64,000 bases of DNA from Pseudomonadota bacterium (GTDB taxonomy: Bacteria > Myxococcota > Myxococcia > Myxococcales > Myxococcaceae), in assembly GCA_023423535.1 (NCBI GenBank), contig JAFAFL010000097.1:1-64000 (forward strand), read 5' to 3'. Positions 2,659 through 32,013 of this stretch are shown here, piece by piece (within the stretch, counting starts at the first letter, position 1; each line of letters opens with the position of its first letter). The position numbers and the translations under genes were made by a program. Below the pieces are notes generated by a model. The model made no database searches. It was given only the letters and a program-made list of their open reading frames with translations, and was not told the DNA's origin.

Positions 2659-4034
2659 CGTGCGCTCTCCTGCGCCTTCAGCTCGAGAGCGGCACGCGCC
2701 ACCGCTCGACCGGCCCGCGCTCCGGAATCCGCCGCCGCGCCGGCGCTCCCTCCGCCCACCAGATCTCCCGCCACGAACACGTCCTCCGCCGCCGTGCGGC
2801 CCTCCGCATCCGCGACGACCACGAAGGTCTCGCGCGCGGGATCGAAAAGGACCTCCGCACCGCCCTGGCGCGCGAGCTCATACGCCGGCGAGGGCGGCAG
2901 GCACACCGCCACCGCGTCGCAGTCCGTGCGGTGTTTCTTGCCCTTCGCGTCTCGCCAGCTGAGGCCCTTCACCTCGGTCCGCCCGTGCACGGTGAGCGGC
3001 TCGGCGCCGCGATCCACGAGCACCTCCGCCTTCACCTCCGCGCCCGCAGCGACGAGCAGGCGACGCTGATTCGCTACCCACTCTTCCGTTCCCACGAGCG
3101 CGAACTTCGTCCCCGGCAAGTTCGCCTCGCGCCGCACGAGCCTCGCCACCGCTCGCCCCGCCATCACGCCCGGCACGTCGTTGTTGTCGAAGGGCCACAG
3201 CGCCGCGTGCCCGCCGTTCGCGAGGAGGAAGCGCTCCGCGTACACCTTCAACAGCCGCGGGCCACGGCCGGCATCTCCGCCACCGAACGACACCGCCGCG
3301 AGGTAGCGCCCCTCCGCATCCGAGAAGAGGCCGATGACCACCGTCTTCAGCCGCAGCGACTCGGCGGGCAGCGATGCGGTGAACGCGGTGACGGGCGGAT
3401 CCTTCTCCGCCGGCGCGTCGTCGAGCAGCCGGCCACCGGGCGTCTCCTCGCGATCGATCAGCAGGAACTTCACGCCCGCGTTCACCAGCTCCCGCGCAGC
3501 GGCAAGGCCTGCGGGTCCTGCGCCCATCACGACCACCGGCACCTTCACGGTCTCCCGCGGCGCTCGCTCGGGCGGCAAGGCGTCGGGCAGCTCGCCGAGC
3601 CCCGCCAGGTGCCGCGCCACGCGCGCCATGACCTTCTCCGCCACCGGCACGCCCGCAAACATCTCGTGGTGGTCGAGCCCCTTCGGGAAGAGCCAGTCGA
3701 TGGCCCCGAACACGTCGTGCTTCACCGACGGGTAGGCGTTCTGGCGCTCCACCCTCATGCCCGCGGTGATCTTCGTGCGGCAGGTGAAGACGTTGGGCAC
3801 GCCGTTCACGCGCATGAGGCACTGCGAGCACGCCGCGCTCATGCACCAGGGACCTCGCGGCCGGTGGTACTTCACCGAGCGGGAGAAGACGGTCTCACCC
3901 GCTGCGAGGAGGGCCGACGCGATCGACTCGCCCTCCTTCGCGGGGAGCGCGGTCCCTTCGAAATCGAACTGCACGGTGCGGGGGGGCACATCGAGGCGGG
4001 GCATGCGGCGGCGGAACCTATGCGAGGCCCTCAC
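2655..4034 (-). CDS. HcnA/HcnB-like fusion: sarcosine-oxidase-alpha-type 2Fe-2S N-domain plus FAD/NAD(P)-binding oxidoreductase
   Basis: Cys-rich N-domain (CMSAACSQC...FTCRT); dinucleotide fold VVVMGAGPAGLAAAREL; start may be the internal M at aa 11. Confidence 0.65.
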   Translation of the reverse strand: MRASHRFRRRMPRLDVPPRTVQFDFEGTALPAKEGESIASALLAAGETVFSRSVKYHRPRGPWCMSAACSQCLMRVNGVPNVFTCRTKITAGMRVERQNAYPSVKHDVFGAIDWLFPKGLDHHEMFAGVPVAEKVMARVARHLAGLGELPDALPPERAPRETVKVPVVVMGAGPAGLAAARELVNAGVKFLLIDREETPGGRLLDDAPAEKDPPVTAFTASLPAESLRLKTVVIGLFSDAEGRYLAAVSFGGGDAGRGPRLLKVYAERFLLANGGHAALWPFDNNDVPGVMAGRAVARLVRREANLPGTKFALVGTEEWVANQRRLLVAAGAEVKAEVLVDRGAEPLTVHGRTEVKGLSWRDAKGKKHRTDCDAVAVCLPPSPAYELARQGGAEVLFDPARETFVVVADAEGRTAAEDVFVAGDLVGGGSAGAAADSGARAGRAVARAALELKAQESAR

Positions 4035-7990: not shown

Positions 7991-8114
7991 CTTCCTGCCT
8001 GGCCGCCCATTGAATCTGCGCAGTCCGGCTTGATACGAAGCGGACACTTTTTTGCCTCTCCGCAGTCCCCGTTTTCTCAGTCCTCGCAGTCACTCCCCCA
8101 GGAGCTTCACGCAC

Positions 8115-10142
8115 ATGGAAACCCTCCCCGAGCTCGCCGGACCGGTGGCCATCCTCGCCGGCGGCGGCCTGACCTTCCTCGCCGGCTTCGCGTGGATCAC
8201 CGTGAAGCTCTACCGAAAGGTCGATCAGGGCCGCGCGCTGATCATCAACCGCATGCGGGACGTGAAGGTCACCTTCAACGGCGGCATGGTCATCCCGGTC
8301 GTCCACCGCGCCGAGTTCATGGACATCTCGCTGAAGACCATCGAGATCGACCGCAAGGGCAAGGAGGGCCTCATCTGCCAGGACAACATCCGGGCGGACA
8401 TCAAGGTCACCTTCTTCGTGCGCGTGAACAAGACGCAGGAGGACGTGCTGAAGGTGGCGCAGTCCATCGGCTGCGCGCGCGCCTCCGACCAGAAGACGCT
8501 GGAGCAGCTCTTCGTGGCGAAGTTCTCCGAGGCCCTGAAGACCGTGGGCAAGCGGCTGAACTTCGAGTCGCTCTACGCCGAGCGCGACCACTTCAAGGAG
8601 CAGATCATCAACGTCATCGGCAAGGACCTCAACGGGTACACGCTCGAGGACGCGGCGATCGACTACCTCGAGCAGACGCCGATCGAGTTCCTCGACAAGG
8701 ACAACATCCTCGACGCGCAGGGCATCAAGAAGATCACCGAGCTCACCGCGCACCAGAACGTGCTGACGAACGACTTCCGGCAGGAGGAGCGGAAGGCGAT
8801 CACCAAGCAGAACGTGGAGGCGAACGAGGCGGTGCTCGCGCTCGAGCGCCAGCAGTCGGATGCGGAGGCGAAGCAGCGCCGCGAGGTGGAGACGGTGCGC
8901 GCCCGCGAGCTGGCGGAGACGGAGCGGGTGAAGAGCGAGGAGCACGCCCGCGCGCAGCTCGCCCGCATCAAGGCGGAGGAGGAGATCCTCATCAACGAGC
9001 AGAACAAGATGAGGCAGATCGAGGTCGCGCAGAAGAACCGCGAGCGCATCGTCGGCATCGAGGCGGAGAAGGTCGCGAAGGACAAGCAGCTCGAGGCGAT
9101 CTCGCGTGAGCGCGAGGTGGAGCTGAACCGGATCGCGAAGGAGAAGGCGCTGGAGGTCGAGCGCAAGGCGATCGCGGACGTGGTGCGCACGCGCATCGTC
9201 GTCGACAAGTCGGTGGCGGAGGAGGAGGAGAAGATCAAGGACCTCCGCGTCCGGGCCGAGGCGACCCGGCAGAAGGACGCGGCGGTCATCCACGCCGAGG
9301 CGGAGGCGCAGGAGCACCTCGTCAAGGAGATCAAGGCGGCGGAGGCCTCCGAGGAGGTCACGAAGATCGACGCGCGGAAGAAGCTGCTCACCGCCGAGGC
9401 GGACCTCGAGGCCGCGGACCGCAGCGCGCGCGCGAAGATGCGGCTCGCCGAGGGCATCCAGGCGGAGAGCGCGGCGAAGGGCCTCGCCGAGGTGCGGGTG
9501 AAGGAGGCGGACGCGCTCGCCACCGAGAAGCAGGGCCTGGCGGAGGCGCGGGTGGAGGAGCAGAAGGGCCTCGCGCTGGTGAAGGTGCAGGAGGCCGAAG
9601 CGGTCGCGATCCAGAAGCGCGGCGAGGCCGAGGCGGACGCCATCCAGCAGAAGCTCGAGGCGGAGGCGCGCGGTCTGGCGGAGAAGGCCACCGCGATGAA
9701 GGCGCTCGACGGCGTGGGCCGCGACCACGAGGAGTTCCGGCTCAAGCTCGAGAAGGAGAAGGCGGTGGAGCTCGCCGCGATCGACGTGCGCCGTCAGATC
9801 GCCGAGGCGCAGGCGAAGGTCATGGCCGAGGCCATGGGCAACGCGAAGATCAACATCGTCGGCGGCGACGGCCAGTTCTTCGAGCGCTTCGTGAAGGCGG
9901 TCTCGCTCGGCCAGTCGATGGACGCGGCGATCGATCAGTCCCAGTCGATGCAGACGTTCTTCAAGGACTACCTCTCCGGCCAGAAGAGCCTGCCGGACGA
10001 CCTGAAGGACATCCTCTCGCGGCCGGGCCTCACCGGTGACGCGCAGAACGTGGCGCTGACCGCGCTGCTGGCGAAGATGGCGCAGCAGCCCACGGTGCCG
10101 CTGGCGCAGCAGCTGAAGAACGTGGTCGATCCCGCGAAGTAG
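8115..10142 (+). CDS. Flotillin-like SPFH/band-7 protein with a long EA-rich coiled-coil tail (YqiK/FloT family)
   Basis: N-terminal TM, SPFH core (RALIINRMRDVKVTFNGGMVIPVVHRAEFMDISL), roughly 400 aa of heptad-rich coiled coil. Confidence 0.8.
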   Translation: METLPELAGPVAILAGGGLTFLAGFAWITVKLYRKVDQGRALIINRMRDVKVTFNGGMVIPVVHRAEFMDISLKTIEIDRKGKEGLICQDNIRADIKVTFFVRVNKTQEDVLKVAQSIGCARASDQKTLEQLFVAKFSEALKTVGKRLNFESLYAERDHFKEQIINVIGKDLNGYTLEDAAIDYLEQTPIEFLDKDNILDAQGIKKITELTAHQNVLTNDFRQEERKAITKQNVEANEAVLALERQQSDAEAKQRREVETVRARELAETERVKSEEHARAQLARIKAEEEILINEQNKMRQIEVAQKNRERIVGIEAEKVAKDKQLEAISREREVELNRIAKEKALEVERKAIADVVRTRIVVDKSVAEEEEKIKDLRVRAEATRQKDAAVIHAEAEAQEHLVKEIKAAEASEEVTKIDARKKLLTAEADLEAADRSARAKMRLAEGIQAESAAKGLAEVRVKEADALATEKQGLAEARVEEQKGLALVKVQEAEAVAIQKRGEAEADAIQQKLEAEARGLAEKATAMKALDGVGRDHEEFRLKLEKEKAVELAAIDVRRQIAEAQAKVMAEAMGNAKINIVGGDGQFFERFVKAVSLGQSMDAAIDQSQSMQTFFKDYLSGQKSLPDDLKDILSRPGLTGDAQNVALTALLAKMAQQPTVPLAQQLKNVVDPAK

Positions 10143-10169: not shown

Positions 10170-13100
10170 ATGGCGGCCGAGACCCCTCACGCGGCACAGC
10201 CGGCGGGAGGGGCCGGGCAGGAGCACCTCGAGGGCGGCAGCTACGAGGTCATCCGCGCGCGGCTCCTTTCGCATGCAAAGGAGCTCGGGCTCCGCGCGGA
10301 CGCGCTGAACGACCGGCGCAAGCAGCTCTTCCGGGGCCAGGAGCTGGCGGTCCTCGGCAACGAGCGCGTGCGCACCGAGAACAACTGCGTCCCGTGCGAC
10401 CTCGTCGCCATCGGGCGGCACGTGCTCTTCGGGTACAACGTCTTTCTCGGGCTGAAGAGCGAGACGAAGGTCTCGGACGTGCTGTCGCTCCACAAGTTCG
10501 AGCCCACGAGCGAGGGCGGGTTCGACCTGTCGGAGGTCTCGACGGCGGAGGCTGGCGGGTTCCTCGCGGACGCGCGCTTCATCCGCGAGTTCGGCGAGCT
10601 CTACCGCTACTACAAGGGCACGCGGCTCGTGCAGCTGCGCCGTCCCGAAGGCCGGCTGTTGATGGTCTTCCAGGTGGGCGAGAGCGCGCGGGACGTGAAG
10701 GTGTTCCGCTTCGCGGTCGATCCGAACGGCAACGCCACCTACATCGACAACGCGGGCGAGCGCGAGAACGTCTATCCCGCGTCGCACGACTTCGAGTGGA
10801 CCGCCACCGGCCGCGACCAGTTCGTGCGCGGCATCCACCCCCACGTGAACATCCTCGACGAGGTCTTCGTGGAGACGGTGGGCGGCGACCTCACCGTCAA
10901 GGTCGAGAACAACACCCAGGACGGGCAGGGCATCTACTCCGAGCCGGTGGAGGACAGGAGCCAGTCGCTCGACGACGCGCAGATCCACTACGCGAAGGTC
11001 GGCACGCTCATCCTCCTCAAGGTGCTGCCCTTCCGCGAGCAGCAGTGGCGCTACCTCGTGTTCAACACGCGGTCGCGGCAGGTGGTGCGGATCGACGCCA
11101 TCGGCCAGGCGTGCGTGCAGCTGCCGGAGGATCAGGGGATCATCTTCCCCGGCGGCTATTACCTCCAGACCGGCGACTACAAGGTCTTCGACGCGGATCC
11201 GTCGGGCCTGATGATGAAGCGGGTGCGCAAGTCTCCGAACGGCGAGGACGTGCTCTACGTCTTCCATCGCCGCGAGGACGGGCACTACACGCTGCTGCCC
11301 TACAACCTCGTGCGCCGCGAGGTCTCGAACCCCATCCACTGCCACGGCTACTCGCTCTTCGACGACGGGAAGATGGTGCTCTTCCGGTCCACCTCCGACG
11401 AGCCGGCGCGCGTGCACCCGATGCAGGTGTGGCAGACGCCGTTCGTCAGCGTCGAGCACGCGGCGGCGGTGGTGCCGCAGGACGGCTCGTACCTGACGAA
11501 GGTGGGCAACGCGGATCTGGTGCGCGGGATCAGCGAGGCCTACACGCTCAAGCGCATCGCCGAGCAGGACGCGCCCACGCGGAGGACGTACGAAGACCTC
11601 ATCGCGCAGGCCGGCCGGATGGCGGACGCCTACTACTGGCTCGGCCACGACGAGGTGGGGCTGCTGCAGCGGGTGGAGGAGCTGCGCAAGACCGCGGACC
11701 TCATCGTCGGCGAGTTCGAGAAGGTCCAGGCGCTGAAGGCGAAGGCGCGCGCGGTGGTGCAGGAGGCGGAGGCGCAGCAGCGCGCGATCGTCGAGGGGCT
11801 GCGGCCGGAGTCGCTCGCGTCCGTCGACGAGTTCATGGAGAAGCTGGGGGCGCTGCGCAACCAGCGCGGGCACCTCATCACCCTGCGCGAGGTCCGCTAC
11901 GTCGATCTGGCGAGGCTGACCGAGCTGGAGAAGGAGGCCTCCGCCCACTTCGACGCGGTGAGCGTGGCGTGTGTGGAGTTCCTGCTCGGCGCGCAGGCGC
12001 TGGCGCCGCTGACGGCGAAGCTCGAGGAGCTGTTCGCCCAGGGCAAGCGGGTGGAGCGCTCCGCGGAGCTGAAGCCGCTGACGGAGGAGCTGGAGAAGAC
12101 GGGCCACGGGCTCGACGTGCTCGGCGAGGTGGTGGGGCAGCTGCAGGTGGGAGACCCCGTCGCGCGCGCGGCGATCCTCGAGGGGATCAGCGAGGTCTTC
12201 AGCCACCTCAACCGCGTCCGCGCGTCGCTCGCGTCGCGGAGGAAGGAGATCCTCGGGCGCGAGGGCAAGGCGGAGTTCGGCGCGCAGTTCAAGCTGCTGG
12301 GCCAGGCGATCGAGAGCGCCATCGGCCAGTGCGACACGCCGGAAAAGTGCGACGAGCAGCTGTCGCGGCTGACGGTGCAGCTGGAGGAGCTCGAGGGCCG
12401 CTTCGGCGAGTTCGACGAGTTCATCGCCGACCTCGCGAAGAAGCGCGAGGAGCTCTACGAGGCCTTCGGCGCGAAGCGGCAGCAGCTGCTCGACGAACGG
12501 CAGCGGCGGGCGCAGAACCTCTTCGGCGCGGCGGAGCGGATCCTCGCCGGCGTCTCGCGGCGCGCAGAGAGCTTCAAGACCGAGGACGAGCTCAACGCCT
12601 ACTTCGCGTCCGACGCGATGGTGCACAAGGCGCGGCAGATCAGCGAACAGCTGATGGCGCTCGGCGACTCGGTGCGCGCGGACGAGCTGCAGTCGAAGCT
12701 CAAGCAGGCCCGGCAGGACGCGGCGCGGGTGCTGCGCGACAAGAAGGAACTCTTCGAGGACGGGCAGAGCGTCATCAAGCTCGGCGCGCACCGCTTCAAC
12801 GTCAACACGCAGGCGCTGGAGCTCACCGTCGTGCCGCGCGAGGGCGGCCTTTCGCTCCACCTCACCGGCACCGACTTCTTCGAGAGCATCAGCGATCCCG
12901 CGCTCGCCTCCACGCGCGAGTACTGGGACCAGCACCTCGTCAGCGAGACGCCGGAGGTGTACCGGGCGGAGTACCTCGCGGCCTCCATGCTCTTCGACGC
13001 GGAGGAGGGACGGGGAGGGCTCTCCATCGCGGCGCTGCGCGAGGCACACCTGGGCGGCGAGGCGGCGGTGCTCGCGCGGGTCCGGGCGTACGCGCAGGAC

Positions 13101-15971
13101 CGCTACGACGAGGGCTACGAGCGCGGCGTCCACGATCACGACGCGGCCCGCGTGCTCGAGGCGTTGCTCGCGCTGCGCGACGGCGCGGGCCTCTTGCGCT
13201 TCCCGCCTTCTGCACGCGCGAACGCGCAGCTCTTCTGGGCCTTCGGTGGAGACGAGGCCGCGCGGGCGCTCTGGCACCGGCGCGCAGTGAGCCTCGGGCG
13301 GCTGCGCGAGTCGCTGCAGCGGGCGGCGGCGCTCTCCGCGCTGGCGGAGGAACTCTCCGCTCCCATCGCGCAGTTCCTCCAGACCGCGCGCGTGGCCGCT
13401 TCACAAGAGGAGGCGAAGCTGTCCGCGCGGTACCTCGTGGAGGAGCTGGTGGCGGAGGCGCCGCGCTTCGTCACCGCGCAGGCCTCGCAGGCGTTGGCGG
13501 GGGCGTTCCTCGGTCACCTGGACCGCGTGGGGACGCGCCGCGCGTTCGAGGACGACCTCAGGCTGCTCGCGGGCCGCGTGTCTGAACGCCTCGCGCTGGC
13601 GACGGAGTGGCTCCAGGGCTTCGTGGAGGCCACGAACGTCCGCGTGGACCGCATCGGCGCCCAGGCGACCGGCGGCGGCCTCGACGCGCTGCTCGCCGAA
13701 GAGCGCCACGTGCTCCCCGAGGCGGTGGCGGTGCTGCTGACGGAGGGCGCGCTCACCCGCGACCTCTCCTCGGCGCGCGTGACGGCCGAGGTTGCAGGGC
13801 TTCTCGGTGCGCATCCCCGGGTGCGTGACGGGAAGCTCGCGCTGTCGCTCGACGAGTTCTCGGCGCGGCTGTTCCGCTTCGCACAGGTGCGCGTGCCGGG
13901 CTACCGCGCCTTCCGGGCGGGCCTGAGGGATCTGCTCGAGCGCGAGCGGCGGCGGCTGAAGCTCGACGAGATGCAGCCGAAGATCCTCTCGTCCTTCGTG
14001 CGCAACCGGCTCATCGGCGAGGTGTACCTCCCGCTCATCGGGCAGAACCTCGCGAAGCAGCTCGGCGCGGCGGGCGACACCAAGCGCACCGACCGGATGG
14101 GCCTTCTGCTCATCGTCTCGCCGCCGGGCTACGGCAAGACGACGCTCATCGAGTACGTGGCGGCGCGGCTCGGGCTGGTGTTCGTGAAGGTCAACGGGCC
14201 CGCGCTGGGGCACGACGTGACCTCGCTCGATCCCGCGGAGGCGCCGAACGCGGCGGCGAGGCAGGAGGTCGAGCGGATCAACCTCGCCTTCGAGATGGGG
14301 AACAACGTGCTGCTGTATCTGGACGACATCCAGCACACGTCCCCGGAATTGCTGCAGAAATTCATCTCCCTCTGCGACGGCCAGCGCCGCATCGAGGGCG
14401 TGTACAAGGGCCGCACCCGCACCTACGACCTGCGCGGGAAGAAGTTCGCGGTGGTGATGGCGGGCAACCCCTACACCGAGACCGGCGAGCGCTTCCGCAT
14501 CCCGGACATGCTCGCCAACCGCGCGGACACCTACAACCTCGGCGAGATCCTCGACGGCAAGGACGACCTCTTCGCGCTCAGCTACATCGAGAACGCGCTG
14601 ACGGCGAACACCGTGCTCGCGCCGCTCTCCGGCCGCGACCCGCAGGACGTGCACCGGTTCATCCGGATGGCGAAGGGCGAGGAGATCGCGCAGACGGACT
14701 TCGCGCACAACTACAGCGCAGTGGAGGTCTCCGAGATCGTCGCGGTGCTGCAGCGGCTCTTCCGCGTGCAGGAGACGCTGCTGAAGGTGAACCAGGCGTA
14801 CATCGCGTCCGCGTCGCAGGACGACAAGTACCGCACCGAACCGCCGTTCAAGCTCCAGGGCTCGTACCGGAACATGGCGAAGGTGACGGACAAGATCGTC
14901 GCCGCGATGACGCCGGACGAGGTCGAGCGCGTGCTCGACGATCACTACCAGGGCGAGTCGCAGGTGCTGACCGTCGGCGCGGAGCAGAACCTGCTCAAGC
15001 TCGCGGACCTGCGCGGCCGGCTCTCCGAGGCACAGCGTCAGCGCTGGGAGGAGATCAAGCGCAGCTATGCCCGCGTGCAGCTGATGGGCGGCTCCGAGGA
15101 CGATCCGGTGGCCCGGGTGACCGGTGGCCTCTCCGCGCTCAGCGGCGAGCTCTCCCACATCCGCGATGCGGTGATGCGGGCCGCGCAGTCGGCCTCGCAG
15201 ACCCAGCGGGAGCAGGCCGAGCGCACGCTGGAGCTGCTGAAGGCCGCGCAGGAGACGGCGGCCCAGGCGGCGAGAGCGGCGGAGAAGTCCCGCGCGGCGC
15301 CTCCGCCGCTGCCGACGGCGCAGGCCTCGTCGGGTTCGGCGGCCTCGCTCGACCCGAAGCTGATGGAGCTGTTGCAGACGCGGCTCGACGCGGTGGCGCG
15401 CGCGATGGTGGAGGTCGCGCGGATCGCGGCACGTCCTCCGCCGAAGCCCGAACCCGCAGCCGCGGCCGTCGTCCAGGCACAGGTCCAGCCCCAGCCCGCG
15501 CAGCCGCCGCAGCCTCAGGTGGATCTGACGCCCTACCTCGAGCGGCTGGAGAGCGTGCTCCGCGTGGTGGCTCAGCGCGCGGTGCAGCCGCCGCAGCAGC
15601 CCCAGCCGCAGCGGCCTTCTGCGGAGCCATCGGTGGATCTGTCGCCCTACCTCGAGCGGCTCGACGAGGTGCTGCGCGCCCTCGCCGAGCGCCCGCTGGC
15701 GGTGAACGCCGAAGCCCTGCAGCGCGCCGCGAGCCCTTCCGCCGCGCCGTCATCTTCAGGCCCGACGATCACCCCCGCGCACTACGACCGGCAGATCGAT
15801 CTGGTGCAGCGCGCGCTCGCCCCGCTGGCCCGCATCGCCCGGCGCACGCTGCGCGACGAGGGCGGCGGCTCCATCCGGTCCATCGAGGTCTGGCGTCACG
15901 TGAACGAGGCCCTCCAGTTGCTGCAGACCATCCCGCCGAACCCCGAGACGCCGCCGGAGACGAAGCCGTGA
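10170..15971 (+). CDS. Giant 1933-aa protein: beta-rich N-terminal region, long coiled-coil segments, embedded MoxR-type AAA+ ATPase module, C-terminal Pro/Gln-rich region with a duplicated ~35-aa motif
   Basis: Walker A GYGKTTLIEYVA, Walker B VLLYLDDIQH, sensor-1-like VVMAGNPYTE, Arg finger region RIPDMLANRAD (aa ~1190-1330); direct repeat VDLTPYLERLESVLR / VDLSPYLERLDEVLR; family unknown. Confidence 0.6.
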   Translation: MAAETPHAAQPAGGAGQEHLEGGSYEVIRARLLSHAKELGLRADALNDRRKQLFRGQELAVLGNERVRTENNCVPCDLVAIGRHVLFGYNVFLGLKSETKVSDVLSLHKFEPTSEGGFDLSEVSTAEAGGFLADARFIREFGELYRYYKGTRLVQLRRPEGRLLMVFQVGESARDVKVFRFAVDPNGNATYIDNAGERENVYPASHDFEWTATGRDQFVRGIHPHVNILDEVFVETVGGDLTVKVENNTQDGQGIYSEPVEDRSQSLDDAQIHYAKVGTLILLKVLPFREQQWRYLVFNTRSRQVVRIDAIGQACVQLPEDQGIIFPGGYYLQTGDYKVFDADPSGLMMKRVRKSPNGEDVLYVFHRREDGHYTLLPYNLVRREVSNPIHCHGYSLFDDGKMVLFRSTSDEPARVHPMQVWQTPFVSVEHAAAVVPQDGSYLTKVGNADLVRGISEAYTLKRIAEQDAPTRRTYEDLIAQAGRMADAYYWLGHDEVGLLQRVEELRKTADLIVGEFEKVQALKAKARAVVQEAEAQQRAIVEGLRPESLASVDEFMEKLGALRNQRGHLITLREVRYVDLARLTELEKEASAHFDAVSVACVEFLLGAQALAPLTAKLEELFAQGKRVERSAELKPLTEELEKTGHGLDVLGEVVGQLQVGDPVARAAILEGISEVFSHLNRVRASLASRRKEILGREGKAEFGAQFKLLGQAIESAIGQCDTPEKCDEQLSRLTVQLEELEGRFGEFDEFIADLAKKREELYEAFGAKRQQLLDERQRRAQNLFGAAERILAGVSRRAESFKTEDELNAYFASDAMVHKARQISEQLMALGDSVRADELQSKLKQARQDAARVLRDKKELFEDGQSVIKLGAHRFNVNTQALELTVVPREGGLSLHLTGTDFFESISDPALASTREYWDQHLVSETPEVYRAEYLAASMLFDAEEGRGGLSIAALREAHLGGEAAVLARVRAYAQDRYDEGYERGVHDHDAARVLEALLALRDGAGLLRFPPSARANAQLFWAFGGDEAARALWHRRAVSLGRLRESLQRAAALSALAEELSAPIAQFLQTARVAASQEEAKLSARYLVEELVAEAPRFVTAQASQALAGAFLGHLDRVGTRRAFEDDLRLLAGRVSERLALATEWLQGFVEATNVRVDRIGAQATGGGLDALLAEERHVLPEAVAVLLTEGALTRDLSSARVTAEVAGLLGAHPRVRDGKLALSLDEFSARLFRFAQVRVPGYRAFRAGLRDLLERERRRLKLDEMQPKILSSFVRNRLIGEVYLPLIGQNLAKQLGAAGDTKRTDRMGLLLIVSPPGYGKTTLIEYVAARLGLVFVKVNGPALGHDVTSLDPAEAPNAAARQEVERINLAFEMGNNVLLYLDDIQHTSPELLQKFISLCDGQRRIEGVYKGRTRTYDLRGKKFAVVMAGNPYTETGERFRIPDMLANRADTYNLGEILDGKDDLFALSYIENALTANTVLAPLSGRDPQDVHRFIRMAKGEEIAQTDFAHNYSAVEVSEIVAVLQRLFRVQETLLKVNQAYIASASQDDKYRTEPPFKLQGSYRNMAKVTDKIVAAMTPDEVERVLDDHYQGESQVLTVGAEQNLLKLADLRGRLSEAQRQRWEEIKRSYARVQLMGGSEDDPVARVTGGLSALSGELSHIRDAVMRAAQSASQTQREQAERTLELLKAAQETAAQAARAAEKSRAAPPPLPTAQASSGSAASLDPKLMELLQTRLDAVARAMVEVARIAARPPPKPEPAAAAVVQAQVQPQPAQPPQPQVDLTPYLERLESVLRVVAQRAVQPPQQPQPQRPSAEPSVDLSPYLERLDEVLRALAERPLAVNAEALQRAASPSAAPSSSGPTITPAHYDRQIDLVQRALAPLARIARRTLRDEGGGSIRSIEVWRHVNEALQLLQTIPPNPETPPETKP

Positions 15972-24196: not shown

Positions 24197-24272
24197 GAGG
24201 AGGGCAGGCGGCCATTCAGCTTCTAGGTTCGACAAGGGGTGCGTGCTAGGTTTCCGCGCAGAAGACACCCGC

Positions 24273-25916
24273 ATGAATGCGCCCGCGCTCGCCGCCCCCA
24301 AAGGTGCCCGGCTCAGCATCAAGCTGCCGGACGGTACCCTCACCGAGTACCCGCTCGCGCCGGTGAAGACGACGCTGGGACGGCATCCGGAGAACAGCAT
24401 CCAGCTCACCGACCGCGAGGTCTCCAAGGAGCACGCGGTCATCGAGCGGATGGGCGCGGCCTGGGTGCTGCGCGATCTGGGCTCGTCCAACGGCACCTTC
24501 GTCAACGGCCGGCGCGTCCGCGAGCTGCGCCTGCAGGACGGCGACCTCATCGCGCTGGGGAACAACTGCAAGCTGTCGTTCTTCGGCGGCGAGGGCGCTC
24601 CGACCCAGCCGGCGCCGGGGCCTTCGGTCACCGTCGTGGCCTCCGCGCACAGCATCCCCGCGTTCGTCGCGCAGCTCGAGCAGCGCGAGCAGACGGAGTT
24701 CCTCCCGGCCGATCAGCTCCGCGACGTGGAGGCGATCCGGCAGGACTACGAGAAGCTGCGGATCGCGCACAAGTTCCACCAGCAGGTCGGCCTCGAGCGC
24801 GACGCGAAGAGCCTCGCGGAGAAGATCCTGCGGGTGGCCTTCGAGCTGCTGGCCGCCGAACACGGCGTGCTCTTCTTCACCGACGAGAAGACGGGCGCGC
24901 TGGAGCCGGTGGCGGTGCACCACCGCAAAGGGGCTGCCGAGGTCTCGGTCTCGGAGACGGTGCTAAAGCGCGTGTCGGAGACGCACCAGGCGGTGCTGAC
25001 GAAGGACGCGATCCTCGATGCGCGGTTCTCCTCGTCGGAGAGCATCGTGGCGCAGGGCATCCGCAGCGCCATGGCGGTGCCGCTGGTGGCAAAGGGGCAG
25101 CTGAAGGGCGTGCTCTTCCTCGACAGCCGCGAGCGAAGCAACGCGTTCAGCGAGAAGGATCTGAAGATCCTCTCCGGCATCGCCTCGCAGGCGGCGATCG
25201 CGCTGGAGAACGCGGAGCTGGCGCGGAAGATCGAGGATGAGGCCATCACCCGCGCCGAGCTGTCGCGCTTCCTCTCCAAGGCCGTGGCGGAGGCGGTGAT
25301 CAAAGGGGACGTGGAGCTGCTCCGGTCGGGACAGCAGGCGGAGGTGAGCGTCCTCTTCGCCGACATCCGCGGCTTCACCTCCATGGCCGAGACCGAGGAT
25401 CCGACCGAGACGGTCGCAATGCTCAACCGCTTCTTCACCGCGATGGCCGACGTGGTGTTCCGGCACGACGGGAACCTCGACAAGTTCATCGGCGACTGCG
25501 TGATGGCGGTGTGGGGTCCTCCGAGGCCGAACGCAGACGACTCGGCGCGCGCGGTGAGGGCGGCGCTGGAGATGCAGGGCGAGGTCCGGCGCATCAACGA
25601 GGCGCGGCTCGCGGAGGGCCTCAAGCCGATCGAGGTGGGCATCGGCGTGAACACCGGCACCGCGATCGTCGGGTTCATGGGCTCGGCCGAGCGCCACGAG
25701 TTCACCGCCATCGGCGACACGGTGAACGTCGCCGCCCGCCTGTGCGACATGGCCCGCGGAGGTCAGGTCGTCGTCACCGAGAACACCGTGCGACGCGCCG
25801 CCGCCGGCTTCCGGGTCCAGCCGCTTCCCACCTCCCAGGTGAAGGGGAAGGAGAAGGGCGTCAACGCGTTCCTCGTGCTCGGGTTCGAGGAGACGGCGAG
25901 CACCCGGAGCCGCTGA
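24273..25916 (+). CDS. FHA domain - GAF domain - class III adenylate/guanylate cyclase
   Basis: FHA (TLGRHPENSIQLTDREVSKEHAVI...SSNGTFVNG), GAF, cyclase motifs (VSVLFADIRGFT...FIGDCVMAVWG...GVNTGTAIVG). Confidence 0.8.
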   Translation: MNAPALAAPKGARLSIKLPDGTLTEYPLAPVKTTLGRHPENSIQLTDREVSKEHAVIERMGAAWVLRDLGSSNGTFVNGRRVRELRLQDGDLIALGNNCKLSFFGGEGAPTQPAPGPSVTVVASAHSIPAFVAQLEQREQTEFLPADQLRDVEAIRQDYEKLRIAHKFHQQVGLERDAKSLAEKILRVAFELLAAEHGVLFFTDEKTGALEPVAVHHRKGAAEVSVSETVLKRVSETHQAVLTKDAILDARFSSSESIVAQGIRSAMAVPLVAKGQLKGVLFLDSRERSNAFSEKDLKILSGIASQAAIALENAELARKIEDEAITRAELSRFLSKAVAEAVIKGDVELLRSGQQAEVSVLFADIRGFTSMAETEDPTETVAMLNRFFTAMADVVFRHDGNLDKFIGDCVMAVWGPPRPNADDSARAVRAALEMQGEVRRINEARLAEGLKPIEVGIGVNTGTAIVGFMGSAERHEFTAIGDTVNVAARLCDMARGGQVVVTENTVRRAAAGFRVQPLPTSQVKGKEKGVNAFLVLGFEETASTRSR

Positions 25917-25919
25917 GGG

Positions 25920-28040
25920 ATGCCCAGCCAGGCCTGCCCCAACTGCCAGCGCGCCCACGACGTGAAGGTCTACGTCACCGGGCAGCGCGTGCTGTGCGGG
26001 TGTGGCATCCGCTTCGAGGTCCGGCGCACGGACGTGTCCGCGCCGAGCGGGCAGAGCATGATCGGGCCCGCTCTCAGCACCACCTCGGCGCCCACCTCGC
26101 CGGAGCGGCCGTCGGTGCGCGGGATGACCGAGGCGCACGTGCCCGGCTCGTCGGTCGTCTCGGTCGTCTCGTCGGATGCGACGTTCATTCCGCCCTCACA
26201 GGCGGGCAACGAGGTCGCGGTCGCAGTGCCGGTGGACGCCACCGCGATGAGCCGGCCGGGCATCGAGATCCCCGGCTACACGCTGGAGCGGTTGCTCGGG
26301 CGCGGTGGGATGGGCGAGGTCTGGCGCGCGGTGCAGCAGTCGCTGGGCCGCACGGTGGCGGTGAAGATCCTCCCGCCGCAGAGCGCGAAGGATCCGGAGT
26401 TCGTCGCGCGGTTCGAGAAGGAGAGCGCGGCGCTGGCGGCGCTGAGCCACCCGCACATCATCCAGATCATCGACCGCGGCAGTGCGGACGGGAACTACTA
26501 CTTCGTCATGGAGTACGTGGAGGGTCAGACCCTCCGCGAGGCGATGGGTTCGGGGCGGGTGAGCATCTCCGAGGCCCCGCGGATCGTGCTGCAGATCCTC
26601 CGCGCCATGGAGGCGGCGCACCACAAGAGCATCATCCACCGCGACCTCAAGCCGGAGAACATCCTCCTCGACGGGCGCGGGCACGCGAAGGTGGCGGACT
26701 TCGGGCTGGCGGGCATCCGAGGCGGCGAGGAGCGACACCAGCTCACCGCCACCAGCGTGGCGATGGGCACCATCAACTACATGGCCCCCGAGCAGCGTCG
26801 GGATGCGCGCAGCGTGGATCAGCGCGCGGACCTCTACGCGGTGGGCGTCATCCTCTACGAGCTGCTCACCGGTGAGCTGCCCATTGGCCGCTTCCGGCTG
26901 CCGTCGGAGCGCATCAGCGGGATCGATCCTCGCTACGACCCGATCGTCGAACGGCTGCTTCAGCCGGATCCTTCTCAGCGTCACGCGAGCGCGGGTGAGG
27001 TCATCGCGGAGCTCGAGCCGCTGGTGTCGTCGATCTCTCCGCGCGCGGCGAGCGGTGCCCTGGCGGGTGCCGGTGCGATGCCCGCGGGCGCGGCGACGAA
27101 CGGAGGGACTTCGCCTCGCGCGGTGTCCGTGGTGCAGCGGGGCTTCCGCGGCGTGCGCACAGGGCTGATGGTCATCGGTGCGCTGGCGACGATCGCGTTC
27201 GCGTCCCGCTTCTTCTTCGGCGCGGATCCGTCGGTGACGATCAGCGGCGGGGGCAAGGAGTTCGTGCTCTCCGCGAACGGGAAGGGCGCGCAGTCGAAGC
27301 TGCCGCTGTCCTCGGGCAGCACCTACGGCGAGGTCTTCAGCGAGGTCGTGGAGGAAGAGCTCGCCGGCGGTCGCACGTCGATGAGGATGACGTTCGGGCC
27401 AGGACCGGAAGAGCTCAACGTCCACACCGGCGAGTGGAAGATGGGCGAGGGCCGGCTCACCGTCGTGCAGGTGGGCAACACCGTCCCGGACGGCAAGCGC
27501 CTCATCCCGCGCGCGTTCGTGGCGCACCGCTACTTCACCGCCGACGACTTCGAAGCCGAGACCGAGCTCGTGCTGCGCGACACGGCGGACCGCTACCAGC
27601 TCGATGCGGAGGCGCAGCGCTTCGCGGAGATCGCATTTCGCATCCGCGATCTCCAGGTGTCGGCGTTCGCCATCCCGGGCGTGGGGATGCGGCTCGGCTG
27701 GCGCTACTACACGGAGGACGGCAGCGAGATCGTCGGCAACAGCGCGCGCGATCTGGAGCTGATGGTGGAGGACGAGACGCCCACGCCGCCGGACGGCAAG
27801 CCGTTCAAGCTCAAGCTCGTGCTGCGCAGACAGCCGGGCAAGGACGCGGTGGAGGCGATCGGGTACCTCGATGGCCGCCGCTTCGCGCGCAAGGTGCTGC
27901 CCGGGCTGCAGGGCCAGGTGGGCAAGATCGCGCTCGGGTGCCGCAACTACGAGTGCTCCTTCGACAACGTGTCGGTGAAGGGCACCGAAGAGGACGGCCC
28001 GCGGCGGCGTCGCAGCGTGGCGGACGCGCAGACGGAGTAA
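25920..28040 (+). CDS. Ser/Thr protein kinase with N-terminal zinc ribbon, TM segment and C-terminal extracytoplasmic domain
   Basis: CPNCQ...CGCG ribbon; kinase subdomains GRGGMGEVWRA, VAVK, HRDLKPENILL, DFGLA, APE; 4 bp downstream of the cyclase gene. Confidence 0.85.
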   Translation: MPSQACPNCQRAHDVKVYVTGQRVLCGCGIRFEVRRTDVSAPSGQSMIGPALSTTSAPTSPERPSVRGMTEAHVPGSSVVSVVSSDATFIPPSQAGNEVAVAVPVDATAMSRPGIEIPGYTLERLLGRGGMGEVWRAVQQSLGRTVAVKILPPQSAKDPEFVARFEKESAALAALSHPHIIQIIDRGSADGNYYFVMEYVEGQTLREAMGSGRVSISEAPRIVLQILRAMEAAHHKSIIHRDLKPENILLDGRGHAKVADFGLAGIRGGEERHQLTATSVAMGTINYMAPEQRRDARSVDQRADLYAVGVILYELLTGELPIGRFRLPSERISGIDPRYDPIVERLLQPDPSQRHASAGEVIAELEPLVSSISPRAASGALAGAGAMPAGAATNGGTSPRAVSVVQRGFRGVRTGLMVIGALATIAFASRFFFGADPSVTISGGGKEFVLSANGKGAQSKLPLSSGSTYGEVFSEVVEEELAGGRTSMRMTFGPGPEELNVHTGEWKMGEGRLTVVQVGNTVPDGKRLIPRAFVAHRYFTADDFEAETELVLRDTADRYQLDAEAQRFAEIAFRIRDLQVSAFAIPGVGMRLGWRYYTEDGSEIVGNSARDLELMVEDETPTPPDGKPFKLKLVLRRQPGKDAVEAIGYLDGRRFARKVLPGLQGQVGKIALGCRNYECSFDNVSVKGTEEDGPRRRRSVADAQTE

Positions 28041-28082
28041 CTTCGAACACAACTGGATTTTTCAGCAAAGGTAAGCTGTCCT

Positions 28083-30926
28083 ATGAAAACGCTGCGCGAA
28101 CTCAAACTCTCCGCAGGACGCAACGTAATAAAGCGGTTTGCAATAAACAACACCACCTCCGCACTCGGACTAATAACCGAAAGCGGCGACGTTATTGTAA
28201 TTGATGTGTCTTCCGGACGTCGCATCTTTCAGTTTGTGGGCGGCCCCACACGAGCGAGCGCAATCGCTTGGAGCGAAGCCGAGAGGTGCTTTCTTTGGGG
28301 CACCACCGATGGCCGAATATTGTTCTGGGACGGCGTTGGAACAAAGTCGCACTTTAAGGCGACTACGGCTCGCAGGTCGCAGAAGAAGCGGAAAAGCTTT
28401 GACCGTCACGGCCAACCTCTTGCACCCATCCCGACATCCGAGCGCGCGCCCGCTGACCGTTCAGCCGTCCTAGCTATAAGTGTTTCACGAACCGGAAAGA
28501 TCGCAGCCATAGTTCAAGACGGCACTTGCTGGGTCATCGAGTCAGGCAGTCGGCATACAGCAACCGCGCGTCTCTTTTGCATGCCCGTGCAGGCGCTGTG
28601 GTCGAATCAAGAGGACCTAGCAATCTCCTATTCTGATGGGTCGGTGCAGCTCATAAGTGGTGACCGAGCGATCTGGATCGAGCAACCACAGGGCAGCATC
28701 ACACCTCAGGATCTAGCAGAGTTCGTTCCCTTTGTGACACAAGATTTCGCTGTCTCCTTCCCCGCAACAACTGCGCGCCACGCCTTCAATCGCACATGGA
28801 CCACCAAGGAAATCGACTACATCACCAAACTCAGCTCAGCAGAAATTGCATCGACCATAAACTATGACGCAACATTCGCTAGGCTCCTCGGCTCATCGTT
28901 GCCTATTGGATGGGGCCGTGACTCCACTCTAATCTTGGGTGGCCGACACGGAGAGGTGCAGTTAGTCGACCGTGCGACCGGCAAGCCGAGAATGGTGCTT
29001 GAGCAGTTCGCGACAACTATCAGGGAGGTCGCCGGAAGCGAAACTGGCGTGTTTGTCACTGTTGACGTGAATGGCGTAATGCGCCTGTGGAATTACGAGA
29101 GCTTGAGTCCAATCCACATCCGCCAGGTGAGCAACGAAGCGCGCGACAGTGGATTACAGTCGATTGATTTGGCCGCGAACGGGACCGCGCTCGCTGTGAG
29201 ACGCGACCGCCACAGCGTGGATATTCTCGTACTGGATGTCGCAGCGACCAGCGCGGACGCGTCGCAAGGAAGCGGGACCGTACGATATACGACCGCGAAA
29301 ATCGTCCTTGTCGGGGACAGCGGTGCCGGGAAGACTGGTCTAGGGTGGCGACTAGCTAAGGGTGCATTCGCGGAACACTCTTCGACCCACGGTCAGCAGT
29401 TCTGGGTTGTTCCTAGTCTATCCCAAGAAGAGTCAAGTGGCTGGCATCGAGAGGCCGTGCTGTGGGATCTGGCTGGTCAAGCAGACTACCGCATCACCCA
29501 CGCACTATCACTTGACAACGTGGATGTCGCCATTCTTGTGATGGATGGCGCAAGCACAGGCGAGGCTCTCAAGGGCGTTCGGTATTGGCTTAACCAATTG
29601 CGACACTCAGAGAAGCCTGCGCCACGAACAATTTTGGTGGGAGCACGGGCGGATCGGGGCGTGCCGGCTCTAAGCAATCAGGAGTTGGCCGCATTCTGTG
29701 CCGAAACCCACATTGAAGGCGGTTTCGTCCTTACGAGCGCGTTAACCGGCGAAGGCCTCCCCGATTTGATGGCCAAAATTGCGAATCTCATAGATTGGTC
29801 AGCCCAGACCAAGACTGTCGCCACGGCATCGTTCAAGCAAATACGGAATTTTGTTCTCGGCGCCAAAGAACGACTAACGGCGACGCCCCTCCAGTCCATT
29901 GAGGCGCTATTTCAGGCTGCGCTGGACAGCGGAATGAGCGTTGACGTGGAGGATTTCGAGGCAGCGCTCTTCAATCTCGCCAAGCACGGATACATCACCC
30001 TCATTTCGACGGTGGATGGCTTGGATGCTGTATTGCTGGCGCCCGAAGTCCTGATAAACCTTGCGTCGTCGATTGTGCTGGAGGCTCGACGAAACCCCAA
30101 GGGACTCGGAGCTATAGACGAGCAACTGATCCTTGATGGCAGAATAGAATCGCGCGAGCTAGTAGCCCTACCCAAAGACACTCAAGACACGCTACTGCTC
30201 GCCGCGATCCGACTTTTTGTTAGCCATAACCTCTGCTTCCGGGAGCGACTCGGAGCAACGAGCTTGTTTGTTTTTCCGGCCCTCATCAACATGAGACGCA
30301 AGGTTACGGCTGACATTGAGCGCTACGACGCAGGGGCGTGGTATGAAATCTCGGGCGCCACTGAGAACCTCTATGCCGTCTGCGTCGTGTTGCTAGGCTA
30401 TACAAACACCTTCAATCGCGCAGCGCACTGGCAAAGCGAAGCAGAGTACGAGACCGAGCGGGGTGAACTATGCAGCCTTCAGTCCCATGACTCCGCAGGC
30501 GGTGGAGTTGTGTTCCAGCTCCGATACTCGCAGCGCACGTCGATGCCAACGCGAACTCTCTTTCAATCACTGGTGGAGCGAATACTTCTGAGACGCAACT
30601 TGCAGGTTAAGCGATTCTTGGCGCCGATTTGCGGTGGGTGCACTGAAAGCCTGCCTCGCGAGGTCGTTTCGGCAAGAATCCGCAGCGGCAAGCAGGATTC
30701 GTTCTGCACGAACTGCGGGAGGGCGATGGTGTTGCCGTCTGGCGATGTTCTTGACACGGCCGAAAGTGCGTCCGGCGCAATACGCATTCAAGAGAAGGTT
30801 TCACATGTAAGGACGCGATATGAGGAGGCGCTCTCGGTCGCCAAGGCTACAGCTCAGCAATTGCACGGCCGGCTGCCTTCGGTGTCCGTGTTCGTCAGTT
30901 ATGCGTGGGGGGGGGCGATGGTATAG
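28083..30926 (+). CDS. ROCO-type protein: WD40 beta-propeller - Roc (Ras-like GTPase) - COR - CxxC...CxxC zinc ribbon; ORF terminated by a frameshift in a G9 tract, with TIR domain continuing in another frame
   Basis: G1 GDSGAGKT, G3 WDLAGQ, G4-like GARAD; WD-like repeats (GTTDGRILFWD, SYSDGSVQLISGD); lower-GC codon usage; last residues SVFVSYAW begin a TIR motif. Confidence 0.6.
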   Translation: MKTLRELKLSAGRNVIKRFAINNTTSALGLITESGDVIVIDVSSGRRIFQFVGGPTRASAIAWSEAERCFLWGTTDGRILFWDGVGTKSHFKATTARRSQKKRKSFDRHGQPLAPIPTSERAPADRSAVLAISVSRTGKIAAIVQDGTCWVIESGSRHTATARLFCMPVQALWSNQEDLAISYSDGSVQLISGDRAIWIEQPQGSITPQDLAEFVPFVTQDFAVSFPATTARHAFNRTWTTKEIDYITKLSSAEIASTINYDATFARLLGSSLPIGWGRDSTLILGGRHGEVQLVDRATGKPRMVLEQFATTIREVAGSETGVFVTVDVNGVMRLWNYESLSPIHIRQVSNEARDSGLQSIDLAANGTALAVRRDRHSVDILVLDVAATSADASQGSGTVRYTTAKIVLVGDSGAGKTGLGWRLAKGAFAEHSSTHGQQFWVVPSLSQEESSGWHREAVLWDLAGQADYRITHALSLDNVDVAILVMDGASTGEALKGVRYWLNQLRHSEKPAPRTILVGARADRGVPALSNQELAAFCAETHIEGGFVLTSALTGEGLPDLMAKIANLIDWSAQTKTVATASFKQIRNFVLGAKERLTATPLQSIEALFQAALDSGMSVDVEDFEAALFNLAKHGYITLISTVDGLDAVLLAPEVLINLASSIVLEARRNPKGLGAIDEQLILDGRIESRELVALPKDTQDTLLLAAIRLFVSHNLCFRERLGATSLFVFPALINMRRKVTADIERYDAGAWYEISGATENLYAVCVVLLGYTNTFNRAAHWQSEAEYETERGELCSLQSHDSAGGGVVFQLRYSQRTSMPTRTLFQSLVERILLRRNLQVKRFLAPICGGCTESLPREVVSARIRSGKQDSFCTNCGRAMVLPSGDVLDTAESASGAIRIQEKVSHVRTRYEEALSVAKATAQQLHGRLPSVSVFVSYAWGGAMV

Positions 30927-31420
30927 GTGCGTGGTGTCAGAGGCTTGTGGATGATCTTGAATCTGCTGGCGTTCGGACATTCTTTGACTTGAACGACAAC
31001 TCTGCGATCGGAAAGAGCGTGTCGCGCTTTGTGTCCCTGGCAGCGGAGGCTTCGCATATTCTCGTTATTGGAACAACGGAGTATCTTGCGAAGTACCTAA
31101 ACAACGTATCGCCAACTGGAAGTATTGTTGCCGCGGAAGCCGATATCATTCAGCATCGACTGACGCGGACGGAGCTTGAGAAGGAAAGCGTGTTGCCAGT
31201 GCTGAGGGATGGTGCGCCTGAGTCTTCGTTTCCGCCGCTGCTACGTGGCAGGGCCTACGCTGACTTCCGGAGGGAAGAGGAGTACTTCCTGCGCCTGTAT
31301 GGGCTTGTGTTGACGTTGTGGGGCGTGCCAGCGACACATCTTGCTGTGCGGCCGGTTCTTGCTAGCCTCATGGCTTCAGTCGAAACACAGGCAAAGTCGG
31401 CCGTTTGCGCGACCTCATAA
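30905..31420 (+). pseudogene. TIR-like domain ORF fragment; frame-shifted continuation of the ROCO gene (putative full protein WD40-Roc-COR-ZnR-TIR of about 1110 aa)
   Basis: TIR-like pattern after the SVFVSYAW box: RLVDDLESAGVRTFFDLNDNSAIGKSV...ILVIGTTEYLAKYLNN; G9 homopolymer at 30907-30915 separates the frames. Confidence 0.5.
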
Positions 31421-31594
31421 CGACATCAAGACTGGTTTCGTGTGTTTGTTGTTTCTTGTGAACGTGAGGTGCTTTGAGTTTATTGGGGACTTGCTGCGGT
31501 TGGTCGTGGCGGCGTTTGCTGGAGCTAGGTGAATGCGGCCTCGGCGATCCGTCATCTTCACGGCCATAACTTCTCTTGCGATCTTGGAGTCCCC

Positions 31595-31977
31595 ATGTCC
31601 CGCCCGCTCTTCGCTGCCTCCCTCGCGCTCTCGTTGCTCGCCGCGCCGCTCGCCGTCGCACATGAGCTGTCGCAGGAGGAGGAGAGGCCCCTGCGGTGGT
31701 GAAGAAGGGGGCGTGCCTGCAGAGGATTGAGGGACCAGCTCCCGCCCGCGTTCTGCAAGCCGACCATGTACTTCCATCAGTGCTTCTCCATCACCGAGGA
31801 GCAGTGCTTGGAGACCGCGAAGAAGACGACGGAGAGCTGCCTCGCGCAGCACGACAAGGAGTGCCGGCGAGCTTCGAGCAGCCGCAGGACGGCACCACGA
31901 GGGGCGCGAAGATCGGCACCTGCGCCAGCATCGCCTTGGAGTCCACGCACAAGGCGAAGCTGTCGAAGGAGGAGTAG
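31595..31977 (+). pseudogene. Possible degraded small secreted Cys-containing protein gene (signal peptide, then coding signal hopping between two frames)
   Basis: MSRPLFAASLALSLLAAPLAVA signal peptide; in-frame TGA at 31697; GC3 coding signal switches frame at about 31697, 31740 and 31868. Confidence 0.25.
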
Positions 31978-32013
31978 TGCAAGGACGCATCGAACTGGAT
32001 TCCCTGAGCCGCG

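Follow-up and report, generated by a model that had tools for sequence, protein, structure and literature searches.

Here, we describe a gene at positions 28,083 to 31,420 of a 64,000-nucleotide stretch of myxobacterial DNA (contig JAFAFL010000097.1, positions 1 to 64,000 of the forward strand, GenBank assembly GCA_023423535.1; a Pseudomonadota bacterium placed in the Myxococcaceae by GTDB), which is referred to as the window in the following. The gene belongs to a large family of proteins in which a WD40-type propeller, a Roc GTPase, a COR-like module, a zinc ribbon and a SEFIR/TIR domain follow each other in a single polypeptide. On balance, we favour the view that the locus consists of one gene of this family gained by horizontal transfer, that the family acts as an immune sensor switched by guanosine triphosphate (GTP) and depleting nicotinamide adenine dinucleotide (NAD+), and that the copy in the window has been inactivated.

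Domain architecture of the protein

The gene had been noticed in an inspection of the letters and their open reading frames (ORFs), here called the sequence-only reading, as a WD40-Roc-COR-zinc ribbon-TIR protein interrupted by a frameshift. The coordinates and motifs quoted there (GDSGAGKT, WDLAGQ, the CxxC pairs and SVFVSYAW) were all found in place, and the frameshift between ORF1 and the TIR-like part could be located in a run of nine G residues (G9) at 30907-30915. For the analysis of the domains, an AlphaFold2 model was built from a 95-sequence alignment; it reached a predicted local distance difference test score (pLDDT) of 79.8 and a predicted template modelling score (pTM) of 0.80, being confident for approximately aa 270-1100 and poor for aa 1-270. 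Residue conservation was counted over 95 family sequences.

The Roc domain proposed by the sequence-only reading is recognized by several profiles: Pfam PF08477 scores 62.2 bits (cutoff 27) and Ras 56.7 bits, both on aa 406-569, and the NCBIfam model small_GTP scores 44.8 bits. It contains the G1 motif GDSGAGKT (aa 411), a switch I region STHGQQFW, the G3 motif WDLAGQ (aa 461) and the G5 motif TSAL, and the P-loop, DxxGQ and SA motifs are invariant across the 95 sequences and kept in the window copy. The G4 motif is a variant, ARAD (aa 521-524, nucleotides 29643-29654), in line with a family pattern ARxD replacing the canonical NKxD (Ala in 93/95, Arg in 93/95 and Asp in 95/95 sequences). The nucleotide specificity of this ARxD clade of Roc domains may deserve a check.

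For the propeller in front of Roc and the module behind it, fold comparison and sequence profiles gave different answers. The WD40 assignment is supported by a Foldseek match of the model to WD40 propellers (ATG16L1, 5nuv, E 2e-11), whereas the Pfam WD40/beta-propeller matches of the window protein remain below their cutoffs; canonical WD40 repeats are present in homologues. Within the propeller, the pLDDT falls short of 50 over a large part of aa 1-270 and exceeds 85 from approximately aa 270. Likewise, the proposed COR domain was supported by its fold but not by any sequence model. Pfam COR (PF16095) matched neither the whole protein nor 18 family members, in which aa 572-846 were scanned singly at E up to 1, and a profile of this 18-sequence alignment retrieved no chain from all PDB sequences at E up to 10. 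By structure comparison, a COR fold consisting of tandem winged helices and a C-terminal alpha/beta subdomain is present after Roc. The best PDB match of the model in Foldseek was LRRK2 (8fo9_A, E 2e-16, 547 aligned columns); the C. tepidum RocCOR tandem (3dpu_A) was matched with E 4e-15 over 512 aligned columns and a template modelling score (TM) of 0.50 on the target, and the next matches were LRRK1 and 6hlu, followed by WD40 propellers. In the fold comparison of the COR part, the C. tepidum COR domain was found with 3dpt_B (values 10.9 and 156) and 3dpu_B (10.5 and 155), M. barkeri Roco2 with 4wnr_A (10.2 and 135) and LRRK2 with 6vno_A (9.5 and 151). From the model we conclude that a COR-type module is present as a fold, but has diverged too far for sequence models, which is probably why Kaur et al. 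(2021) list such proteins without a COR call.

The zinc ribbon is marked by four cysteines, three of which (C850, C875 and C878) occur in 95/95 sequences and the fourth (C853) in 85/95; all are kept in the window copy, and Pfam Zn_ribbon_9 gives a weak match.

The C-terminal domain, which had been read as TIR-like, does match Pfam TIR_2 (PF13676, cutoff 28; ORF2 by itself scores 36 bits and the repaired domain 45.3 bits), but its relationships point to bSEFIR more than to canonical TIR domains. Both Pfam TIR_2 and Pfam SEFIR match 22/22 family members (SEFIR at E up to 7e-13). When the C-terminal domain was searched as a profile, the best solved relative was the B. cereus SEFIR domain (BcSEFIR; 5Y8E/5Y8F) with E 7e-14, while the same profile reached canonical TIRs (PdTIR, RPS4, AbTIR) only at E 6e-4 to 0.2. 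The PADLOC model for bSEFIR was matched with E 2.9e-17, covering only profile positions 37-193 of 412, at the C-terminus of the 1,111-aa protein. Judged by these profiles, the effector is closer to bacterial SEFIR than to canonical TIR. A putative catalytic glutamate, E1018 (in VVAAE, codon GAA at 31136), is found in 94/95 sequences, is kept in the window copy and aligns with a glutamate of BcSEFIR. The bSEFIR protein is a single-gene defence against phage phi29 (Millman et al. 2022), and NAD+ depletion via its SEFIR domain has been reported (Osterman et al. 2024, preprint).

Table 1 Features of the locus; positions refer to the window and aa to residues of the encoded protein.
Feature	Position	Strand	Description
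ORF1	28083..30926	+	947 aa; WD40, Roc, COR-like module, zinc ribbon, helical linker, first SEFIR/TIR strand
WD40-type beta-propeller	28083..29270	+	aa 1-396; blades degenerate in aa 1-270, aa 270-396 well modelled
Roc (AP-GTPase, Ras-like)	29274..29792	+	aa 398-570
COR-like module	29796..30620	+	aa 572-846; tandem winged helices (COR-A-like), then alpha/beta subdomain (COR-B position, KA1-like fold), assigned by modelled fold
Cys4 zinc ribbon	30624..30737	+	C850, C853, C875, C878; CGGC at aa 850, CTNC at aa 875
Long helical linker, zinc ribbon to effector	30777..30866	+	aa 899-928; helix by DSSP on the AlphaFold model
SEFIR/TIR (STIR superfamily) effector	30879..31420	+	strand A (SVFVSYAW, aa 935) in the frame of ORF1, rest in the frame of ORF2; stop 31418-31420
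ORF2	30905..31420	+	171 aa; -1 frame relative to ORF1
G9 homopolymer with frameshift	30907..30915	+	G7 or G10 would be in frame
One-gene low-G+C island	28041..31530	.	G+C 53-60%, approximately 70% in flanks

Frameshift and state of the window copy

ORF1 and ORF2 are two halves of one gene. The G9 frameshift splits strand A from the remaining effector domain, leaving the effector out of frame with ORF1, which is closed shortly afterwards by a premature stop (...SYAWGGAMV, then stop). Open reading is restored by the addition of one G (1112 aa) or the removal of two (1111 aa); the sequence-only reading had given a length of 1110 aa. With two G removed, the junction aligns without gaps to 94 homologues (SYAWGGDGIGAW compared with SYAWGDxxQERW). 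The tract is peculiar to the window copy: 75/78 homologues have a longest run of 4 G at the SYAWG site, and none has more than 6. Besides G9, the window contains a single further homopolymer of at least 7 bases, a G7 at position 3980. The ORF placed downstream by the gene caller comprises 157 aa, starts at 30947 and does not include strand A.

Two records bear on the authenticity of the lesion. An identical G9 is present in a separate Logan assembly of SRR13358459, which agrees with the window at 100% identity across 5510 bp, and the truncated 947-aa product is recorded on three contigs. Both favour a real lesion, and we consider a genuine, inactivating frameshift likely. Its position at the first effector strand uncouples the 947-aa sensor-switch part from the effector, and from a downstream ORF lacking strand A no functional effector is to be expected unless the frame is restored. 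Most likely, the copy is therefore inactive, either as a recent pseudogene or as a copy held off. At the same time, the 171 downstream codons are fully open, the family-invariant effector residues are kept and there is no second lesion, which makes the frameshift young, reversible or an artefact. In a check for decay, the window copy deviated at 46 of 224 highly conserved columns (median 6, maximum 24 in homologues), with the changes lying across Roc, COR and SEFIR and often being conservative. However, the closest relatives of the window copy share at most 47% identity, so that divergence and relaxed selection are inseparable and the count is not used as evidence.

These observations leave room for other explanations of the tract. 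The gene could be intact in the organism, with G9 representing a miscount of a true G10 or G7 during sequencing or assembly. That the break falls exactly into the longest homopolymer of the window, in front of an effector frame that has stayed open and unharmed, would fit such an error, but the truncated product on three contigs and the same G9 in the Logan assembly speak against it, and we regard it as unlikely. Lower still is the probability we assign to G9 being a contingency switch for phase variation or a place where transcription or translation slips by -1, by which the full-length toxic protein would be made in a subpopulation or from few transcripts. Coding tracts of such length are rare here (one other run of at least 7 in 64 kb), this one is placed precisely at the junction of sensor and effector, a slip of one base to G10 would restore the frame, and the effector frame is without decay. 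Against this stand the short G runs of the homologues, by which the tract is not a feature of the family, and its constant length in both sequences compared (window and Logan contig). Slippage on G:C runs is also less documented than on A/T runs. A family-wide slippery poly-G site was considered and rejected because homologues carry TGGGG only. Equally far from probable is the most elaborate proposal, namely that the family represents a GTP-gated, single-protein abortive-infection system with a SEFIR-type NADase, as the Ras-like-GTPase counterpart of the nucleotide-binding leucine-rich repeat (NLR) and Avs sensors, and that in this myxobacterium G9 would be a reversible on/off switch, working by slippage of DNA or by -1 slippage during transcription or translation and silencing a self-toxic, horizontally acquired effector in most cells. 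We retain the reading of an inactivated copy for the window.

Horizontal acquisition, size and distribution of the family

The gene stands out from its surroundings by composition. Its G+C content at third codon positions (GC3) is 0.60, compared with 0.85-0.97 in all neighbouring genes, and together with the drop in overall G+C (Table 1) this marks the locus as a one-gene foreign island, indicating horizontal acquisition. No tRNA, integrase, transposase or other mobile-element gene was found around the island, direct and inverted repeats flanking it were at chance level only, and promoter and terminator scans gave no signal above shuffled expectation. The host itself is a Myxococcaceae-type bacterium, as TruD encoded in the window shares 56-76% identity with its counterparts in Myxococcus, Pyxidicoccus, Corallococcus and MAGs labelled 'Myxococcaceae bacterium'.

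A search of 5.8 billion proteins resulted in more than 1,293 matches. The architecture is common to more than 1,000 homologues; its domains were itemised among the 120 best-scoring ones (E 1e-170 to 1e-190, 34-47% identity), nearly all of which contain Roc together with TIR_2 or SEFIR, and most of which contain WD40. Six inspected homologues showed the same domain order in one ORF. The profile of the COR-like module, compared with 1.84 billion representatives (50% identity clusters), matched 1,495 sequences at E up to 1e-3, 1,144 at 1e-10 and 376 at 1e-30. Among species-representative genomes, 289 stretches encoding relatives were found, and all following counts of loci, neighbours and taxa refer to the best 80 of these 289 genomic relatives.

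Intact orthologues, which the sequence-only reading had suggested looking for, are the rule: single ORFs are present in 76/80 homologues, with lengths of approximately 880-1,520 aa and mostly 1,000-1,150 aa. The largest share of the 80 belongs to the Acidobacteriota, accompanied by Thiomargarita/Thiotrichaceae, Planctomycetota, Verrucomicrobiota and Cyanobacteria, and further members come from Pseudonocardiales, Actinoplanes regularis DSM 43151, Bradyrhizobium, Chloroflexota, Saprospiraceae and Chlorobiaceae. Among them, intact genes of cultured strains are located at approximately 954530-957556 of NZ_FZNR01000002.1 (A. regularis DSM 43151) and 187056-190187 of NZ_JAFCME010000008.1 (Bradyrhizobium sp. 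AUGA SZCCT0158). Three full-length members (L015, L045 and L062) are archaeal, from Methanotrichaceae/Methanothrix and metagenome-assembled genomes (MAGs) of Methanosarcinales, which implies transfer between domains of life. In many homologue loci, the G+C content differs between gene and flank, by up to 0.16. The patchy distribution over bacteria and archaea is shaped by horizontal transfer.

Two further observations concern single loci. A second disrupted member is found in a Verrucomicrobiota MAG (L058, BJHT01000127.1), where an in-frame TAA at approximately position 2525 replaces the Tyr codon of the family's conserved motif LLGYTNTF and splits the gene into ORFs of 754 aa and 299 aa. In two other loci, Roc-COR(-TIR) paralogues lie upstream of the family member, one or two genes away (L047, 7229-9352; L048, 6314-9490). 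Tandem duplication is a pattern typical of immune receptor families.

Genomic neighbourhoods

The neighbourhoods were compared by all-against-all clustering of up to six genes to either side in the 80 loci. No gene was found at a fixed position, and the largest neighbour cluster occurred in 8/80 loci at varying positions. The idea of a two-component system or operon was consequently dropped, as no partner gene is conserved in the 80 loci, and the lack of a conserved neighbour indicates that the protein is self-contained. For an association with defence islands, which the sequence-only reading had proposed to test, we considered the 148 neighbours formed by the nearest one or two genes per side. 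Approximately 7-10 of the 148 gave defence-type matches (MTase II, PDC-M16A, PDC-M50A, PDC-S68, RecD, bSEFIR, SIR2, RES) as a raw count. Sporadic matches of this kind do occur, but most neighbours, in the 80 loci as in the window, are of the housekeeping type, so that an association with defence islands is not clearly borne out and appears weak.

More distant relatives (L082-L084), with 31% identity across the Roc and COR-like region, are located on conjugative or mobilizable cyanobacterial plasmids, namely p057_H of Nostoc sp. C057, pNFSY08 of N. flagelliforme and plasmid4 of Calothrix NIES-4101. Their WD40-Roc-COR-like part is combined with a metallophosphoesterase, a NACHT or a canonical TIR_2 domain, and their genes adjoin NACHT genes, a MoxR ATPase gene with a gene for a SAV_2336-N protein, an integrase and transposases. 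Exchangeable effectors on an otherwise constant sensor-switch part are the hallmark of conflict systems.

Proposed function

Based on the anatomy of the protein and its component families, the following mode of action appears plausible. The N-terminal propeller would serve as the surface sensing a ligand or invader, and the Roc-COR tandem as a GTP-dependent switch of conformation or oligomerisation. That conformation and oligomeric state change with the nucleotide is established for C. tepidum Roco and LRRK2. Once switched on, Roc-COR would draw the C-terminal SEFIR/TIR domains together, with the zinc ribbon and the long helix (aa 899-928) possibly acting as the tether between switch and effector. 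The juxtaposed domains might then hydrolyse NAD+ via the conserved glutamate, as in bSEFIR and TIR defence proteins, and the loss of NAD+ would arrest the infected cell in the sense of an abortive infection.

Several points weigh against this interpretation. The 148 nearest neighbours are mostly housekeeping genes (iPGM, heptosyltransferase, redoxin, ArgRS, enolase), with only sporadic defence-type matches, and the neighbours in the window are genes for a Ser/Thr kinase, an FHA-GAF cyclase and an Opp ABC transporter, with no defence genes among them. No relatives were found in the viral contigs of IMG/VR. COR is undetectable by sequence, the putative role of E1018 as the catalytic glutamate is derived from the alignment, and the literature search found no experiment on any Roc-COR-TIR/SEFIR (Roc/Roco-TIR) protein. 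As to the window copy, the open downstream frame with its invariant residues means that the frameshift could be reversible or of very recent origin, or could reflect an error in sequencing.

Part of these points would be accommodated if the family were a GTPase signalling scaffold, for example in development or stress, and the SEFIR/TIR domain merely a module for protein-protein interaction. The predominance of housekeeping or signalling genes in the neighbourhoods and the absence from viral contigs agree with such a role, many hosts are filamentous or aggregating (Myxococcaceae, cyanobacteria, actinomycetes, Thiomargarita, Methanothrix), and SEFIR domains were originally proposed as interaction modules (Yang 2018). 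Against this role, a glutamate aligned to that of BcSEFIR is kept in 94/95 sequences, and the closest profile match is the NAD+-depleting defence protein bSEFIR. The plasmid relatives swap effectors and lie next to genes of conflict systems, the family is distributed patchily by horizontal transfer, and it includes tandem paralogues and occasional pseudogenes. We consequently judge a pure signalling role improbable and prefer the NAD-depleting immune sensor.

The window copy itself adds little, being broken and belonging to a catalogued class of architecture; the value lies in the family. It offers an abundant and self-contained test case, with a Roc-COR switch coupled to a kind of domain for which NAD+ depletion in phage defence has been demonstrated. 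Should phages be restricted by an intact orthologue in a GTP- and Glu-dependent manner, this would be the first experimental small-GTPase-gated immune NADase, and NAD+ loss would provide a simple read-out for the Roc-COR activation cycle. To our knowledge, the well-studied Roco-type relatives comprise only disease proteins (LRRK2, DAPK1) and one Chlorobium structural model protein.

Relationship to known systems

Counter-invader systems built on AP-GTPase (Roc) and COR with C-terminal effectors including TIR were described by Kaur, Iyer, Burroughs and Aravind (eLife 2021, PMC8195603, Fig. 6D), with N-terminal leucine-rich repeats (LRRs), COR and at least 24 different C-terminal domains. The source data of this study contain 581 occurrences of 'COR+TIR' architecture strings and already list 'BetaPropeller+AP-GTPase+TIR' (e.g. 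HFS11412.1, Anabaena, 1179 aa) and 'AP-GTPase+ZNR'; the architecture is therefore not undescribed, as the sequence-only reading had supposed, but catalogued and predicted to be immune, with no experimental paper found. AP-GTPase and COR are also mentioned in vWA ternary systems (Kaur et al. 2020). In common with the systems of 2021, the present family has a repeat sensor, a Roc/AP-GTPase and a variable C-terminal effector including TIR within a single polypeptide, as well as an enrichment in bacteria of multicellular habit, and its effector position varies between Metallophos, NACHT and TIR_2 in relatives. It differs from the LRR sensors and recognisable COR of the published text by its WD40 propeller, a COR seen only as a fold, the inserted Cys4 zinc ribbon and the SEFIR-like effector. 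Furthermore, few such entries are listed there compared with the 289 species-representative matches found here, and the listed systems are predictions.

The Roco proteins (C. tepidum Roco, M. barkeri Roco2, LRRK1/LRRK2, DAPK1) share the succession of Roc and a COR-type module and provide the best structural matches. Unlike these, the family has no COR at the sequence level, carries ARxD instead of NKxD/THxD as G4, and has a SEFIR/TIR effector and no kinase; in addition, the WD40 domain is C-terminal in LRRK2 and N-terminal here. With bSEFIR, the family shares a homologous SEFIR-type domain, the aligned glutamate and the single-gene organization. In the bSEFIR protein, however, SEFIR is N-terminal in approximately 400 aa, the rest of which is unrelated, whereas here it is C-terminal to WD40-Roc-COR-zinc ribbon. 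Sequence comparison thus argues for homology of the domain and not for membership in the system.

The sequence-only reading had likened the protein to STAND/NLR-TIR sensors, and as an analogy between immune sensors this appears reasonable. STAND/NLR sensors with TIR domains (Avs/AVAST, bNACHT) and plant TIR-NLRs likewise combine a repeat sensor and an NTPase switch with an effector of the TIR family that becomes active on oligomerisation. Their switch is a STAND AAA+-type ATPase (NB-ARC/NACHT), while the sole NTPase here is a Ras-like TRAFAC GTPase with COR, and the effector is C-terminal. The likeness is therefore best taken as one of analogy and not of membership.

Surroundings of the locus

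Directly upstream of the island, the region 24243-28040 contains a gene for an FHA-GAF-adenylate/guanylate cyclase and a gene for a Ser/Thr protein kinase with a long C-terminal extension. Such a kinase/cyclase signalling environment is one commonly seen in myxobacteria and has no relation to defence. Downstream, the stretch between the island and an oppF-like gene (31560-32010) has an intermediate G+C content of 64-67%, and a small ORF at 31595-31702 begins with a signal-peptide-like sequence (MSRPLFAASLALSLLAAPLAVA). Farther upstream in the window, a 696-aa ORF without a Pfam match (8052-10142, plus strand) is followed by a 1933-aa ORF (10170-15971, plus strand) that matches Pfam DUF3686 ('ATPase involved in DNA repair', 672 bits) and DUF7902.

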